From sequence record MZ311862.1: DNA of 39,586 nt. The stretch is one strand, 5' to 3'. Positions 15,989 to 21,921 of the stretch are shown piece after piece; the first letter of the stretch is position 1, and each line of letters opens with the position of its first letter. Origin of the DNA: Escherichia phage vB_EcoP_LNA3. The notes under the pieces were generated by a model. That model saw only the letters and a program-made list of their open reading frames with translations, made no database searches and was not told where the DNA came from. Position numbers and translations under genes: made by a program.

Positions 15989-16084
15989 CTGAATGAATAA
16001 CTATAGGCGAAAACTGAATTAATAAGCAGTTAGTAACCTATAGTTACTACCAGTCTAACCTACTGTTTTACAAGGAGTTTGGAC

Positions 16085-16103
16085 TTAACTATCACTATAG
16101 GGA
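16085..16103 (+). promoter_or_regulatory. phage RNA polymerase promoter (phiOR position)
   Basis: TTAACTATCACTATAGGGA downstream of gene 19, before the right-end region. Confidence 0.75.
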
Positions 16104-16279
16104 AGACCCCCGGTTACTTATAGTATTACTGTAGTGAATATACATATGCAGACTTTATGCAAGACCTTAGGAGGCAGACTCCGAGTTCTTACCTAAGGCT
16201 TGCACCGATGGAAGGAGGGTGATATTAATCATCACACCCTCATAACTTAAGTAGACCCAAGAGACAGGAGGTATGTAGC

Positions 16280-16438
16280 ATGGGTAAGACCAAGGCTGTT
16301 CTTAAAGCTCTGGCGACCAATAGAGCTACGTACAGGTTTCTTGCTGCTGTTCTACTTGCTGCTGGCGTTACTGCTGGAAGTCAGTGGGTCTGGTGGGTCG
16401 AGACTCTCGTATGTACTCTGGTGTCTGAGTGTCATTAA
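16280..16438 (+). CDS. small hydrophobic protein (gene 19.5 position)
   Basis: 52-aa ORF (MGKTKAVLKALATNRATYRFLAAVLLAAGVTAGSQWVWWVETLV...) with AGGAGG 6 nt upstream; below the ORF-track cutoff. Confidence 0.45.
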   Translation: MGKTKAVLKALATNRATYRFLAAVLLAAGVTAGSQWVWWVETLVCTLVSECH

Positions 16439-16676
16439 CGCCATCATGGTAACAATCAACGAAAGCAAGACCTAAGGTCAGTTCATAGCTGACGCTACTC
16501 TACTGACCTTAGCTACTGTAGTCAAGGACTTTAGGTAACACCTTAAGAGAAGCTCACTTAGGGTCATCCTACTTATTGGTCTATCCTAGTGTCGCCTGAC
16601 CTACGGTCCTTGACCTACAGTGGCTGTGGCCTACAGTAGTGACGATGAGTTTTGGACCAAAAGTTTGAGACCACAT

Positions 16677-16853
16677 CTCACAGTTCAAGAACCTCAAGTC
16701 TCCCCATAGGCCCTCTTTCAGTCAGACCAAAGGCCCTACCCCAGTCTATCATAAGGCTGGACCGATGGTCAAGACTTCAGGTCAACGATAGGTGGTGACT
16801 ATGGCTTAGGGAAGGACGATAGGTGGTGACTATAGGTCTGTCTTTGAGTCTCT
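16677..16853 (+). repeat. predicted terminal-repeat region; genome left end predicted at about 16677
   Basis: TCTCACAGTT...ACCTCAAGTCTCCCCATAGG parallels the remembered T7 left terminus TCTCACAGTG...ACCTAAAGTTCCCCCATAGG; ...GTCTTTGAGTCTCTATCTGT parallels the end of the T7 repeat. Boundaries approximate (about +/-30 bp). Confidence 0.5.
16785..16833 (+). repeat. 18-bp direct repeat ACGATAGGTGGTGACTAT, two copies
   Basis: Exact copies at 16785..16802 and 16816..16833, 31 bp apart, inside the predicted terminal repeat. Confidence 0.7.
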
Positions 16854-16870
16854 ATCTGTATCAGACCATA

Positions 16871-16950
16871 AGTCACTAACCTACAGTCTCACTAACCTAC
16901 AGTCTCACTAACCTACAGTCTCACTAACCTACAGTCTCACTAACCTACAG
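16871..16950 (+). repeat. tandem array of 16-bp units TCTCACTAACCTACAG (four perfect copies plus one near-copy)
   Basis: Perfect units at 16887, 16903, 16919 and 16935; degenerate CCTACAG-containing units continue to about 16995 and also occur at 16600..16640. Confidence 0.9.
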
Positions 16951-17103
16951 TCTCAACCATAAGACACCAACACCTACAGTCATAGACCTACAGTTACTAG
17001 ACACAAAGCTATAGACTTAAGGTCAAAGACATGTTAGTCAAAGACTATATCCTATTACACCATGGGGCCGACGATAGCTTAATCAATATTATTTCAAATT
17101 ACC

Positions 17104-17132
17104 TATTGACTATAGGTCTAGACTATGGCTTA
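17104..17132 (+). promoter_or_regulatory. host sigma70-type early promoter (T7 A1-like)
   Basis: TTGACT, 17-bp spacer, CTTAAT; the TTGACT-ATAGG context resembles the remembered T7 A1 promoter. Confidence 0.5.
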
Positions 17133-17246
17133 ATAGCTTCCGTCAACACGACACGGCAACAACCGGATAGTGAAGACGCCTGGTCATCCCGGTTAAGTAG
17201 ACAGCCTGATAAGTCATACGAACAACAGGCAGATGACAGAAAGTAG

Positions 17247-17275
17247 TTGACAAGAAGTAAGACTTAAAGTAGTAT
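17247..17275 (+). promoter_or_regulatory. host sigma70-type early promoter (T7 A2/A3-like)
   Basis: TTGACA, 17-bp spacer, TAGTAT. Confidence 0.5.
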
Positions 17276-17429
17276 GTACCACATCAACACGAAACAACGG
17301 TGAAGCCTAACACTGAAACAGGCTAGCACGGCGACGACAGCCAGTGCGAATGCTCTTTAACAATCTGGATAACTCTTAATGTGCGCCGATAGCGACTAAC
17401 TACATGGCCTTTAGTCTACATCTGAAGGC

Positions 17430-17449
17430 CCTGACTGATAGTCACTAAC
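17430..17449 (+). repeat. 20-bp conserved element CCTGACTGATAGTCACTAAC, copy 1
   Basis: Identical copy at 17747..17766; each lies about 15-30 bp upstream of a gene start. Copy 1 follows a GGCCTT/AAGGCC hairpin (17407..17428). Confidence 0.7.
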
Positions 17450-17465
17450 TTAACGGATGGACACT

Positions 17466-17711
17466 ATGAAACACTTAAGCACAATCACTAATCGCAATGA
17501 AGTATTCGTGAACACTAAAGGTTATGCGTGGATTCAGCTTAAAGAGATGAGAGGAGCGCGTCACCGTGTGGTAGTTCGCAAGGTATCAAGCAAGCCGTTC
17601 AGCAACTACAGCGTAGATACTATGCGTATAGACAACGAGACTTACCTGATAGACTCGCAGATAACCGTGCGTCCTACAGCGGGCATCTCAGCTCCTTATT
17701 TCGCTAACTGA
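17466..17711 (+). CDS. hypothetical early protein upstream of the Ocr-like gene
   Basis: 81 aa from ATG 17466 (84 aa from ATG 17457); first ORF after the early promoters; no similarity I recognise. Confidence 0.5.
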   Translation: MKHLSTITNRNEVFVNTKGYAWIQLKEMRGARHRVVVRKVSSKPFSNYSVDTMRIDNETYLIDSQITVRPTAGISAPYFAN

Positions 17712-17746
17712 GAGTGATTAACTACAGGTCGTTAGACTGATAGCGG

Positions 17747-17766
17747 CCTGACTGATAGTCACTAAC
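17747..17766 (+). repeat. 20-bp conserved element CCTGACTGATAGTCACTAAC, copy 2
   Basis: Exact repeat of 17430..17449, just upstream of the Ocr-like gene. Confidence 0.7.
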
Positions 17767-17794
17767 ACATAATTAACTTTGAGAGGATATAACT

Positions 17795-18298
17795 ATGGAA
17801 CGTAATGCTAACGCATACTATGAGCTGCTGGCTGCAACCGTTGAGGCATTTATCGAGCGTATTCAGTACGACCACCTGACTCAAGATGATGACTACAGCG
17901 ATGCGCTGCATGAGGTCGTAGACGGTCAGGTTCCCCACTATTACCACGAGATTTTTACGGTGATGGCTGCTGATGGTATAGACCACGAGTTCGAAGACTC
18001 TGGGATGATGCCTGAAACCAAGGACGTAACGCGTATACTACAAGCTCGCATCTATGAGGCGCTTTATAACGATGTGTCTAATAGCTTGGATGTAGTCTGG
18101 TTTGAGGCTGAAGAGGCAGACGAAGAGGATGAATATTGGGTAGTTGACGCTAAAACAGGCGCAATAATTGTGCAAGCTGTAGCTCTTGAGGTCGCTACTG
18201 CATGTGCCAAGGTCAACTATGCAATAGGTCGCCACCTGAAGGTGGAAGACATCAATGATAACGTAGTGTTCGACCCTGCGGCTGAGGACTGCGAGTGA
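17795..18298 (+). CDS. ocr: Ocr-like anti-restriction protein (gene 0.3 homologue) with C-terminal extension
   Basis: [45 protein letters not shown] matches the T7 Ocr core; 167 aa versus 117 in T7. Confidence 0.8.
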
Positions 18299-18447
18299 TG
18301 GTAACTTATGGTCTCTGCCAGCACCACGTCGCCAACGCCCGGCTTATGGTCAAGACCGGGCGGTTAACCCATGATGAGACTATGCGTATCCTGAAGGTGG
18401 TCTACAAGCGCCGCAAGCGCATACACGACAGTTTGCACGCTGAGTGA
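18298..18447 (+). CDS. small basic hypothetical protein (gene 0.4 position)
   Basis: 49-aa ORF coupled to the Ocr-like gene by a TGATG overlap; below the ORF-track cutoff. Confidence 0.4.
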   Translation: MVTYGLCQHHVANARLMVKTGRLTHDETMRILKVVYKRRKRIHDSLHAE

Positions 18448-18513
18448 TAAACGAGAGGTCACGACTGATAGGTGGCCTCAAAGATTACCACTTACATTGA
18501 TAGGAGAATTACT

Positions 18514-18681
18514 ATGAAATTTACAATCATCGCACTTTACGTAACCATTATTCTATCTTGGCTTACTGCGGTGCTCACTGATGGTAACGCATTACGACTG
18601 GGCTGGCTGGCAGTGGACATTATATTCTCTCCGGTAGGTGTCGTGCGCGGTATCTTGATGTGGATTGGACTGGCAGGATAA
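18514..18681 (+). CDS. small membrane protein (hypothetical)
   Basis: 55 aa with two hydrophobic segments; TAGGAG 5 nt upstream of ATG 18514 (the track's 18472 start lacks a Shine-Dalgarno). Confidence 0.5.
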   Translation: MKFTIIALYVTIILSWLTAVLTDGNALRLGWLAVDIIFSPVGVVRGILMWIGLAG

Positions 18682-18684
18682 ACT

Positions 18685-18882
18685 ATGAGTCTTGCACTAT
18701 TGATAGCCATAGGCTATGGACTTATCGCCTACGTGCTGGTGAGAGACATCAACAAAGCGCGTGAAGTCTACAAATTCAACTATGTACGTCTGGGCCGCTG
18801 GACTGTACGTCAACCTAACGGACAATTCATGCGCAACTTAGCGAACGTCTGGGATATAGCAACTATTGGGAGCAAACTGTAA
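18685..18882 (+). CDS. small membrane protein (hypothetical)
   Basis: 65 aa with N-terminal hydrophobic segment MSLALLIAIGYGLIAYVLV. Confidence 0.5.
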   Translation: MSLALLIAIGYGLIAYVLVRDINKAREVYKFNYVRLGRWTVRQPNGQFMRNLANVWDIATIGSKL

Positions 18883-19142
18883 TGAAAACCGTATACATTA
18901 ACAAACCATCTAGCCATAGCCGTGTAGAGCAAATAGAGCGTGACATGTTCTTACATCGCCGCATGAGGGCTGAGGGCCATAAGTACGAACTGATGAGTCT
19001 GGCGTTTGGTGGACGACCGATCACTGACGATGGTAAACTTTTAGTCTCAGGCTGGAAGGCGATAGACCAACGGTCAACCATCAAGCACACGACTCACGGT
19101 GACTTCAGCCATCTCAACGCTAACCCTCTGATATGCAAGTGA
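18882..19142 (+). CDS. hypothetical early protein
   Basis: 86-aa ORF coupled by a TAATGA overlap to the preceding gene; occupies the slot where T7 has the gene 0.7 kinase. Confidence 0.5.
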   Translation: MKTVYINKPSSHSRVEQIERDMFLHRRMRAEGHKYELMSLAFGGRPITDDGKLLVSGWKAIDQRSTIKHTTHGDFSHLNANPLICK

Positions 19143-19149
19143 TTCTGAC

Positions 19150-19167
19150 TTAACTATCACTATAGGA
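19150..19167 (+). promoter_or_regulatory. phage RNA polymerase promoter directly upstream of the RNA polymerase gene
   Basis: TTAACTATCACTATAGGA about 72 bp before the gene 1 ATG. Confidence 0.7.
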
Positions 19168-19239
19168 CTCAAGGTCTAAGACTCCAAGTGAAAGACCAAA
19201 GAGACTTTAAGTGAAAGACTAATAACAAGGACTTTAAGT

Positions 19240-21921
19240 ATGAGCGTCATCTCTATTGATAAACACGACTTCTCTGATGTGTCGAACGCCATTGAGCCGT
19301 TTAACCTGCTGGCAGACCACTACGGGCAAGACCTTGCAGTCAAACAGCTTCAGCTTGAGCATGAGGCCTACACAGAAGGCGAGCGACGTTTCATCAAGAA
19401 CCTTGAGCGCCAGACCGAGCGCGGGGAACTGGCAGACAATCAGGTCGCCAAGCCTTTGATGCAGACTCTGGTGCCTAAGATTGCGCAAGCAGTCAAGGAG
19501 TGGCACGAAGGCCAAGACGGGAAGCTGTCAACCTCTCGTCCTAGCGTAGCGTTCACCAAGTTGAGCACTGAAGAGAAGGCCGTCAAGGACCGCTCTATGC
19601 GCATCTCCTGTGAGTCCGCTGCGGTTATCATACTGAAGGTCATACTCTCCAAGCTGGTCAAGCCTGAAGGGATACCGATTACACCTATGGCCTCAGCGTT
19701 AGGTCGCACACTTGAGGACGAAATCCGCTTCGGTCGCATCCGTGACAAGGAGAAGGAGCACTTCAAGAAGGCGATAGCTGAGAACCTGAACAAGCGAGCT
19801 GGGGCATCCTACAAGAAAGCCTACATGCAAGCTGTAGAGGCATCCATGCTGGAGCAAGGCCAACTGGAAGATGCGTGGGGGACTTGGAGTCCGACCGAAG
19901 CGGTACACGTTGGCATCAAGATGCTCGAGATTGTCATCCAGTCCACACAACTGGTCGAGCTTAAGCGTTATGGTGCTGGCAATGCGGCGGCTGACGTTGA
20001 GATGGTCCACCTGTCAGACTTCTGGGTAAAGAAGATGGCACAACGTGGATTCAGCCTTGCGGGTATTGCGCCAGTCTATCAGCCTTGCGTCGTTCCACCT
20101 AAACCGTGGACTGGTGTAGTAGGCGGTGGGTACTGGGCCAAAGGTCGCAGACCGTTACCATTGATTCGCTTAGGGTCTAAGTCTGCGGTAGCACGTTATG
20201 AAGACGTGTACATGCCTGAAGTCTATGACGCTGTGAACATCATTCAAAATACACCTTGGAAAGTGAACAAGAAGGTATTGAACGTGGTGAACATGGTCGA
20301 GAAGCTGAACAACACGCCTATTGATGACATCCCTCAGATGGAACCGCTGAAGCCTGAGGACTATGCTGGTGAGACCGAGGAGGAACTCAAGGCATGGAAG
20401 AAGGCTGCTGCTGGTATCTATCGCCGCGAGAAGGCCCGACAGTCACGCAGATTATCACTGAGCTTTATCATCAACCAAGCGAATAAGTTCTCTCAGTTCA
20501 AGGCCATCTGGTTTCCATACAACATGGACTGGCGCGGTCGAGTCTACGCTGTGCCGATGTTCAACCCTCAGGGTAACGACATACAGAAGGGTCTCCTGAC
20601 TCTGGCAGTCGGTAAGCCTATTGGTGCTGACGGTTTCAAATGGCTGAAGGTCCATGGTGCAAACTGCGCGGGTGTTGATAAAGTCACCTTCGAGGAGCGC
20701 ATCAAGTGGGTGGAAGACAACCACGAAAACATCATGGCTGCTGCTAAGGCACCGATGGATAGTATTGAGTGGTGGGGCAAGTTAGACTCTCCGTTCTGCT
20801 TCCTTGCGTTCTGCTTCGAGTATGCTGGTGTAATGCACCACGGATTGTCTTACTCCTGCTCACTGCCGATAGCGTTCGATGGGTCATGCTCTGGTATTCA
20901 GCACTTCAGTGCGATGCTTCGTGACCACATCGGTGGACATGCAGTAAACCTGACGCCATCCGGCATGGTACAAGACATCTACCGCATTGTGTCTGACCGC
21001 ATTGAGGAGGAGCTTAAAGTCCTGCTGATTACCGGTACTGACAACGAGATGGTCACTCACGAGGATAAGAAAACTGGTGAGATTACCGAACGTATCAAGC
21101 TGGGGACACGAGAGCTGGCCCGTCAGTGGTTGACATACGGTATGTCACGCAAGGTCACTAAGCGTTCAGTCATGACTCTGGCATACGGGTCGAAAGAGTA
21201 CGGCTTCGCTGACCAAGTTTACGAGGACATCGTGATGCCAGCGATTGACTCAGGATCTGGCGCTATGTTCACCGAGCCGAGCCAAGCGTCTCGCTTCATG
21301 GCTAAGATGATTTGGGAAGCTGTGAGTGTGACCGTAGTTGCTGCGGTTGACGCGATGAAGTGGCTTCAAGGTGCTGCCAAGCTGCTGGCTGCTGAGGTGA
21401 AGGACAAGAAGACTGGAGAAATCCTGAAGCCTTGCCTTCCGGTACACTGGGTCACTCCTGATGGTTTCCCGGTCTGGCAGGAATACCGCAAGAAGGATAC
21501 CACTCGTCTGAACCTGATGTTCTTAGGGTCATTCAACCTTCAGCCTACCGTCAACAGAGGTACGAAGAAAGAGCTGGACAAACACAAGCAGGAGTCAGGC
21601 ATTAGCCCGAACTTCGTCCACTCACAAGATGGTAGCCACCTCCGCAAGACTGTAGTCCATACTCACCGCAAGTATGGCGTGATGTCGTTCGCAGTGATTC
21701 ACGATAGCTTCGGGACCATCCCGGCTGACGCTGAGTATCTGTTCCGTGGGGTCCGTGAGACTATGGTCGAGACCTACCGCGACAACGATGTGCTGCTTGA
21801 CTTCTACGAGCAGTTTGAATACCAGCTTCACGAGAGCCAGCGCGATAAGTTGCCAGAGCTTCCGAAGAAAGGTAAACTGAATATTGAGGACATCTTGTCT
21901 TCAGACTTTGCATTCGCTTAA
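19240..21921 (+). CDS. T7-like single-subunit DNA-dependent RNA polymerase (gp1)
   Basis: 893 aa, collinear with T7 RNAP (DFSDV...PFN.LADHYG...; C-terminal ...DILSSDFAFA). Specificity loop at 21541..21600 reads QPTVNRGTKKELDKHKQESG. Confidence 0.97.
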   Translation: MSVISIDKHDFSDVSNAIEPFNLLADHYGQDLAVKQLQLEHEAYTEGERRFIKNLERQTERGELADNQVAKPLMQTLVPKIAQAVKEWHEGQDGKLSTSRPSVAFTKLSTEEKAVKDRSMRISCESAAVIILKVILSKLVKPEGIPITPMASALGRTLEDEIRFGRIRDKEKEHFKKAIAENLNKRAGASYKKAYMQAVEASMLEQGQLEDAWGTWSPTEAVHVGIKMLEIVIQSTQLVELKRYGAGNAAADVEMVHLSDFWVKKMAQRGFSLAGIAPVYQPCVVPPKPWTGVVGGGYWAKGRRPLPLIRLGSKSAVARYEDVYMPEVYDAVNIIQNTPWKVNKKVLNVVNMVEKLNNTPIDDIPQMEPLKPEDYAGETEEELKAWKKAAAGIYRREKARQSRRLSLSFIINQANKFSQFKAIWFPYNMDWRGRVYAVPMFNPQGNDIQKGLLTLAVGKPIGADGFKWLKVHGANCAGVDKVTFEERIKWVEDNHENIMAAAKAPMDSIEWWGKLDSPFCFLAFCFEYAGVMHHGLSYSCSLPIAFDGSCSGIQHFSAMLRDHIGGHAVNLTPSGMVQDIYRIVSDRIEEELKVLLITGTDNEMVTHEDKKTGEITERIKLGTRELARQWLTYGMSRKVTKRSVMTLAYGSKEYGFADQVYEDIVMPAIDSGSGAMFTEPSQASRFMAKMIWEAVSVTVVAAVDAMKWLQGAAKLLAAEVKDKKTGEILKPCLPVHWVTPDGFPVWQEYRKKDTTRLNLMFLGSFNLQPTVNRGTKKELDKHKQESGISPNFVHSQDGSHLRKTVVHTHRKYGVMSFAVIHDSFGTIPADAEYLFRGVRETMVETYRDNDVLLDFYEQFEYQLHESQRDKLPELPKKGKLNIEDILSSDFAFA

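Follow-up and report, generated by a model that had tools for sequence, protein, structure and literature searches.

A conserved C-terminal accessory domain on the Ocr DNA mimic of a K1F-like Escherichia phage

Ocr, the textbook DNA-mimic anti-restriction protein, blocks type I restriction-modification (R-M) and BREX systems, and PARIS, Ronin and some type III systems in turn detect Ocr. In T7, Ocr (gp0.3) ends after an acidic tail at 117 aa. The Ocr of Escherichia phage vB_EcoP_LNA3 (sequence record MZ311862.1; the whole stretch of 39,586 nucleotides is hereafter called the window) is different, as the corresponding acidic tail is a linker to a further domain and the open reading frame runs 54 residues (114-167) past it. 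What is this additional part of the protein, and what may it contribute to a DNA mimic? We conclude, with a probability of about 0.95, that the protein is the gene 0.3 product of a K1F-like phage and consists of an Ocr mimic, a flexible acidic tether and an alpha/beta domain of about 48 residues. For the function of this domain we propose a reading that is more tentative.

The window covers the complete genome, in circularly permuted form, of a K1F-like podovirus (genus Kayfunavirus); its region 16,000-20,000 showed 96% identity to Escherichia phage PhiNW-B1. The Ocr gene (17,795-18,298, + strand) is a complete CDS of 167 aa plus stop. It starts with ATG, and a Shine-Dalgarno sequence GAGAGGA (17,781-17,787, + strand) can be read 7 nt 5′ of the start codon. 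The product is orthologous to K1F gene 0.3 (YP_338090, 169 aa; 82% identity over the full length) and is 95-99% identical to the proteins of 38 other phage records. It shares its two-module architecture and genomic position with the K1F protein and other Kayfunavirus “Ocr-like” proteins (PHROG 2568), and the window thus carries another allele of the same gene. The PHROG 2568 profile covered residues 1-142 of the query. The K1F long Ocr has been in the databases since the K1F genome of 2005, labelled Ocr-like. Genome papers list the long form merely as “169 aa, DNA mimic ocr”, and we found no description of a C-terminal extension of Ocr in the literature. In GenBank, long Ocr proteins are also labelled “protein kinase” or “similar to N4-like RNA polymerase” (MZ398247, LT594300, OM937123 and OM355495). 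These labels appear to be annotation errors that have spread among Kayfunavirus genomes.

As in T7, the Ocr gene is located in the early region, upstream of the T7-type RNA polymerase gene (19,240-21,921). It is followed by a separate gene, a gp0.4 homologue of 49 aa (18,298-18,447, + strand; phrog_5058, E-value 1.5e-24). The ATG of this gene overlaps the Ocr stop codon by one base (TGATG), and the same 1-nt overlap is annotated in K1F. The gp0.4 orthologue in five contigs (L004, L005 and L054-L056), close in sequence to the window ORF, has a precomputed assignment to PF26807 (Phage_T7_GP04). By orthology, the gp0.4 homologue of the window (18,298-18,447) belongs to this family of FtsZ inhibitors. 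Between it and the RNA polymerase gene (18,447-19,240, + strand), the window encodes just three short ORFs (69, 65 and 86 aa; phrog_7319, phrog_2385 and phrog_7066), all of unknown function. Like K1F, it has no gene 0.7 kinase in this interval, whereas phages IME15 and Ebrios, which carry a diverged long Ocr, do have the kinase. Upstream of Ocr are two conserved ORFs of unknown function, at 17,031-17,246 (71 aa, phrog_30192) and 17,457-17,711 (84 aa, phrog_10124), both on the + strand, in a part of the early leader region that is annotated without genes in K1F. A sigma-70-like site (TTGACA-17-TAGTAT) lies at 17,247-17,275.

The N-terminal module was readily assigned. Residues 8-94 matched positions 6-92 of the 101 positions of the Pfam ocr profile (PF08684) with 103.4 bits (E-value 1e-29), far above the gathering cut-off of 25 bits. 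A phmmer search matched residues 11-111 to the T7 Ocr structure (1S7Z; E-value 2.5e-25), and tblastn gave about 60% identity to T7 Ocr over residues 17-94. The initial annotation had recognised the homology to T7 Ocr but had placed it at residues of about 40-115; the homology holds and is both wider and stronger than was claimed. The dimer-interface residues F54 and L82 were invariant in 46 homologues, and all six positions corresponding to the T7 acidic residues E59, D62, E64, E66, D67 and D73 (Mut3 set of the central block, Dryden numbering) are occupied by D or E in the window protein. As in T7 Ocr, the acidic tail comes after a long helix. Residues 1-113 contain 30 D/E and five K/R, with a pI of about 4.1. 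In an AlphaFold2 model of the full-length protein, the Ocr part showed helices at 7-26, 35-59 and 75-96 in the expected order, with pLDDT values of only 44-81. At the sequence level, the N-terminal module is shown to bear all the hallmarks of Ocr, and residues 1-103 (17,795-18,103, + strand) are clearly predicted to form an Ocr DNA mimic. In T7 Ocr, the central block of aa 59-91 carries most of the activity, the protein still inhibits EcoKI after removal of its last 7 or 17 residues, and the residues after aa 99 mimic the DNA flanking the target site (PMC3439906).

Residues 104-113 (18,104-18,133, + strand) form the acidic linker, in which eight of ten residues are D or E. In a pairwise alignment this run is paired with the acidic tail at the C-terminus of T7 Ocr, in line with the initial annotation, which had equated the two. 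The proportion of D/E is 80% in the linker, 21% in the Ocr domain and 12% in the core of the C-terminal domain (residues 114-161). Across 121 homologues, the linker was most often 10 residues long and varied between 3 and 21, as expected of a flexible tether. In the full-length AlphaFold2 model, residues 97-113 were coil with pLDDT values of 56-59, and residues 111-160 were modelled with values of 85-90.

The C-terminal accessory domain (residues 114-161, YWVVD...VVFDP) is encoded at 18,134-18,277 (+ strand), and a short acidic tail (AAEDCE) with the stop codon follows at 18,278-18,298 (+ strand). The extension had been described as about 50 residues long and non-acidic. Its length is confirmed, while the second description requires correction: the extension is less acidic than the Ocr domain and the linker, but residues 114-167 still contain nine D/E against four K/R (pI 4.5), and the pI of the core (114-161) is 4.9. 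When the domain was modelled alone with 25 homologues, AlphaFold2 gave a confident beta-beta-alpha-beta-beta fold (pLDDT 91.9, pTM 0.75) with strands at 114-118, 124-129, 148-151 and 157-159 and a helix at 131-143. This model predicts that residues 114-161 are a separate, independently folding alpha/beta domain. The conserved core of the domain comprises W115, G122, L131, A134, Y142, G145, V150, E151, D152, V157, V158 and P161. Among 121 sequences, the segment V150-E-D-I-N-D-x-V-V-F-D-P161 and the hydrophobic core were nearly invariant. Most of the variation falls on the helix and the following loop (positions 132, 133, 135, 140, 141, 143, 144 and 146), and in the same 121 sequences the variation in this region (131-146) sorts into recognisable allelic types. 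The helix of the window protein is a less common variant that differs from the consensus. At the protein level, the accessory domain has diverged at about 2.2 times the rate of the Ocr domain. In a Nei-Gojobori analysis of six sequences, dN/dS of the extension was 0.08-0.57 and below 1 in all 15 pairs; for the Ocr domain of the same sequences it was 0.10-0.27.

The long architecture is widespread. Using tblastn, we detected an Ocr homologue in 572 of 50,697 phage records. In 80 of these, including the type phage K1F, the match runs through all 167 residues of the long form (71 of the K1F type and nine diverged). A separate tblastn search with the extension alone, in which E-values up to 10 were allowed, returned 71 records, with matches only at Ocr loci (sites annotated as Ocr or unannotated). 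In a metagenomic collection of 5.8 billion proteins, sequences of 162-179 aa in more than 120 clusters (90% identity level) matched over the full length. From these record counts, the protein clusters and the dN/dS values, it follows that the extension is translated and under purifying selection. The initial suggestion of an added domain, which is here predicted to fold autonomously, agrees with the model, with its conservation in K1F and dozens of relatives, and with this selection.

Three clades of the domain were recognised. The K1F type (71 records) occurs mostly in E. coli phages and was found in a single one of the 126 Klebsiella-phage records that have an Ocr homologue. The second, the IME15/Ebrios/Aeromonas-phage type, was found in nine records, and the third is the Kosakonia Kc166A type. 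SP6/K1E and Klebsiella-phage Ocrs differ from the window protein in lacking the C-terminal domain. The identity of the domain between the three clades is only 22-28%, and their Ocr domains are visibly much more alike. The long Ocr gene of IME15 and Ebrios has another position than in K1F, between 0.6A and the 0.7 kinase gene and next to a T3-type SAMase gene. In all three clades and at both positions, the domain occurs as part of an Ocr protein only, which suggests that it may work together with the DNA mimic. The Teseptimavirus loci of IME15 (L009, 398-1722) and Ebrios (L012, 454-1677) encode a T3-type 0.3 protein (SAMase) in addition to the long Ocr, i.e. two anti-restriction genes in one early region. 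In RefSeq the SAMase is labelled SAM-dependent methyltransferase, with the note 0.3.

We searched for the domain as a free-standing gene or on another carrier protein using tblastn (50,697 phage records), two word-indexed protein searches (a single sequence and a three-clade profile; 5.8 billion proteins) and a full HMMER profile scan (1.84 billion cluster representatives), and found none. The word-indexed searches gave just fragments of the same long-Ocr gene. Four weak HMMER hits were discarded: they are repeat proteins in which partial matches of at most 12 bits add up to the score. That phages with the short form encode the domain elsewhere in their genomes was ruled out, as tblastn placed it at Ocr loci only. 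Nor was a known family identified: Pfam, PHROGs (with the extension alone), PDB sequence profiles and Foldseek against the PDB were all empty, in keeping with the initial impression that the extension resembled nothing recognisable.

Structural comparisons pointed in the same direction. Foldseek found nothing below an E-value of 0.6 in the PDB for the domain and did not recover ClpS, and in BFVD it found only uncharacterised small phage proteins (E-values 0.01-0.03). From our reading of the topology, the domain appears to share a strand-strand-helix-strand core with ClpS and with the C-terminal domain of L7/L12, and to lack the two helices that form the N-degron/substrate pocket of ClpS. In a hand alignment, the ClpA-contact residues of ClpS do not seem to be conserved, E79 corresponding to a variable position and K84 to Cys. 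A profile comparison with ClpS (PF02617) revealed no sequence or profile similarity. A ClpS-like adaptor fold was rejected, because the domain has neither profile similarity to PF02617 nor a complete beta-alpha-alpha-beta-alpha-beta core. The antitoxin Dmd of phage T4 and the anti-CRISPR AcrIF9, each a beta-sheet with one helix, scored as would be expected for any small alpha/beta domain. An hhalign comparison with T4 Dmd was null, and kinship to Dmd or AcrIF9 was set aside as not significant by Foldseek or hhalign. Both are free-standing proteins, in contrast to this domain, which is always fused to Ocr. The likeness to ClpS, L7/L12, Dmd and AcrIF9 is generic only, and we regard the C-terminal domain as forming a small alpha/beta family that is new and whose fold neighbours are generic. 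The novelty is an uncharacterised accessory domain on the known Ocr protein, and not a new class of system.

The DNA around the domain indicates how it can be lost. The linker is encoded by GA-rich repeats, GGCTGAAGAGG (18,106-18,116) and GACGAAGAGGA (18,119-18,129), with a downstream partner, GGCTGAGGAC (18,280-18,289), in the region of the AAEDCE tail. The C-terminus of short Ocrs in this subfamily reads ...EEDCE or ...EDCDD. Because the DCE-stop of the long form comes after the domain, the domain lies inside the acidic tail. Natural short alleles of 110-116 aa are common in related phages, and there are some, ending at 110-114 aa, that represent independent deletions. Those of Kayfunavirus have three in-frame junctions (FEAEE|DCE, EESDEE|DCE and EEGD|E-stop), all of them within the GA-rich repeats. 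For nine of nine short alleles, the closest relative in the Ocr domain was a long allele (93-98% identity), compared with 90-94% identity to other short alleles. The simplest reading of these junctions and identities is that Kayfunavirus phages have recently lost the cassette on at least three independent occasions, each time by a clean, in-frame deletion. It is very probable that the domain is a cassette flanked by GA-rich direct repeats coding for acidic residues, and that recombination between the repeats has removed it.

None of the short-form deletions has disturbed the stop codon or the overlap of this codon with the start of the gene that follows. The final codons of the window gene are GAG GAC TGC GAG TGA, in which GAGGA (18,284-18,288) is a candidate Shine-Dalgarno sequence, placed by its position to serve the gp0.4 homologue. 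Long and short Ocr alleles alike retain the ...DCE-stop ending, probably because this GAGGA would serve as the Shine-Dalgarno sequence of gp0.4.

Free copies of the domain were found as debris of the long-Ocr gene only, namely a 1-nt frameshift form and truncated or deletion remnants. The frameshift form was observed in three runs of one study (Logan SRR33193082-84; L003 3001-3180, L004 and L005), which have an extra G (TATTGGGGTAG versus TATTGGGTAG). This GGG to GGGG insertion splits the gene into an Ocr of T7 length (117 aa) and an overlapping, domain-only ORF of 59 aa; the extra G is either a natural or an assembly variant. No internal in-frame start or slippery site that could yield dual products was seen in 18,104-18,140 of the window. 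A programmed frameshift or an internal start producing both forms was therefore rejected, the split in these contigs being a plain insertion. Another free remnant is a fragment of 41 aa.

Two other rearranged forms were found. In a protein of 167 aa (P0092; seven contigs, the longest of 38,886 bp), the extension breaks off at ...AIGRHLK and continues in frame into the C-terminal part of gp0.4 (...AVYEGHKRIHDSLHAEDK); this deletion has stripped the domain of its final strands and removed the greater part of gp0.4. In a protein of 57 aa (P0127; L054 3001-3174, L055 and L056), the first ten residues of Ocr (MERNTNAYYD) are followed by the second half of the C-terminal domain. The latter comes from Kc166A-like phages in three unrelated samples and has lost nearly the whole DNA mimic; this near-total loss may reflect selection against Ocr.

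The presence of the domain on Ocr only, its conservation combined with fast evolution on an exposed helix, and its repeated loss point to an Ocr-dependent function. The reading that we favour, though we place it somewhat short of even odds, is that the domain is an Ocr-dependent protein-binding module at the tips of the dimer, providing a second contact that tunes range, avidity or detectability. Since the tail of T7 Ocr lies at either distal end of the dimer and is not needed for inhibition, the extra domains would hang from both distal tips on short acidic tethers, and would leave the mimic surface and its binding in the groove undisturbed. From there they might contact the defence complex bound by Ocr, or a host factor that recognises Ocr. 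Such a contact could tune the target range, the avidity or the visibility of Ocr to abortive systems that sense it. The benefit of the domain would then depend on the host, which would explain why it is conserved and yet repeatedly lost.

A bolder proposal, to which we give a low probability, is an Ocr-dependent second activity that would be new for any DNA mimic. In its leading version, the domain would neutralise PARIS, Ronin and EcoR22I-type systems or hide Ocr from them, and its loss would reflect hosts that sense the domain itself. In a more speculative version, a ClpS-like core would recruit a host AAA+ protease to the restriction complex bound by Ocr.

Other readings of the domain were also considered. 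It could be an independent second inhibitor of host defence, whose fusion to Ocr merely secures early co-expression. An anti-defence target of its own was one of the roles suggested in the initial annotation. The similarity to Dmd and AcrIF9 was not significant. If the domain acted on its own, it should also be encountered as a gene in its own right or attached to other carriers, whereas none of the searches recovered such a case and the free copies are the frameshift variant and truncated remnants only. We therefore regard an independent inhibitor as unlikely.

Alternatively, the domain could hinder the recognition of Ocr by PARIS AriA, Ronin or EcoR22I-type systems while the inhibition of R-M and BREX stays intact. 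Evasion of sensors would account both for the occurrence of the domain on Ocr only and for its host-dependent pattern of gain and loss, and the natural near-deletions of Ocr in related phages may reflect selection against Ocr in some hosts. AriA binds an Ocr monomer through the F54/L82 face, i.e. the central dimer interface (PMC10802264). Both residues are invariant, so that the window Ocr should otherwise be detectable by AriA. However, the domain is tethered distally, up to 21 residues away, and is thus not obviously placed to mask that central face. Sensor evasion as the sole role of the domain seems to us distinctly improbable.

A structural role was judged similarly improbable. The domain could cap the end of the long C-terminal helix, or self-associate and thereby build longer, DNA-like assemblies of Ocr, akin to the altered oligomerisation surface that had also been put forward initially. 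The C-terminal deletion of T7 Ocr is reported to destabilise the protein, the restriction of the domain to Ocr fits as well, and the alternating pattern of conservation suggests that conserved hydrophobic and aromatic residues (Y114, V116, V157 and F159) line the open face of the predicted sheet and could self-associate. Against a rigid cap, the linker is acidic, 3-21 residues long and poorly predicted. Moreover, most Ocrs are short forms that lack the domain, and those of T7 and SP6 are functional; the faster evolution of the helix surface would also be unexpected for a simple stabiliser.

Finally, a frameshift or read-through artefact, with the real protein ending near residue 113-120, is negligible as an explanation: short alleles of 110-116 aa are common in related phages and one metagenomic contig set does carry a split gene, but the short alleles have lost the domain in frame and do not arise from earlier stops in the same sequence, the unbroken frame recurs in 80 independent phage genomes and more than 120 clusters, selection is purifying in all the pairs compared and the fold prediction is confident, so that the sequencing frameshift with a true stop near residue 120 envisaged in the initial annotation does not apply to the window.

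The module at the dimer tips thus remains the reading that we prefer for the long Ocr. In the literature we found no published test of any long-form Ocr against type I R-M or BREX. The natural long and short alleles, matched at 93-98% identity in the Ocr part, allow a direct test of what the domain does. If the domain proved to be without a phenotype, it would be a lineage-specific ornament and the protein an ordinary Ocr. As it stands, about one in seven of the reference phages that encode Ocr, including the therapeutic-model phage K1F, carries an extra domain that is conserved and fast-evolving. This domain may represent a new way to extend or protect a DNA mimic, or a new trigger of host defence.
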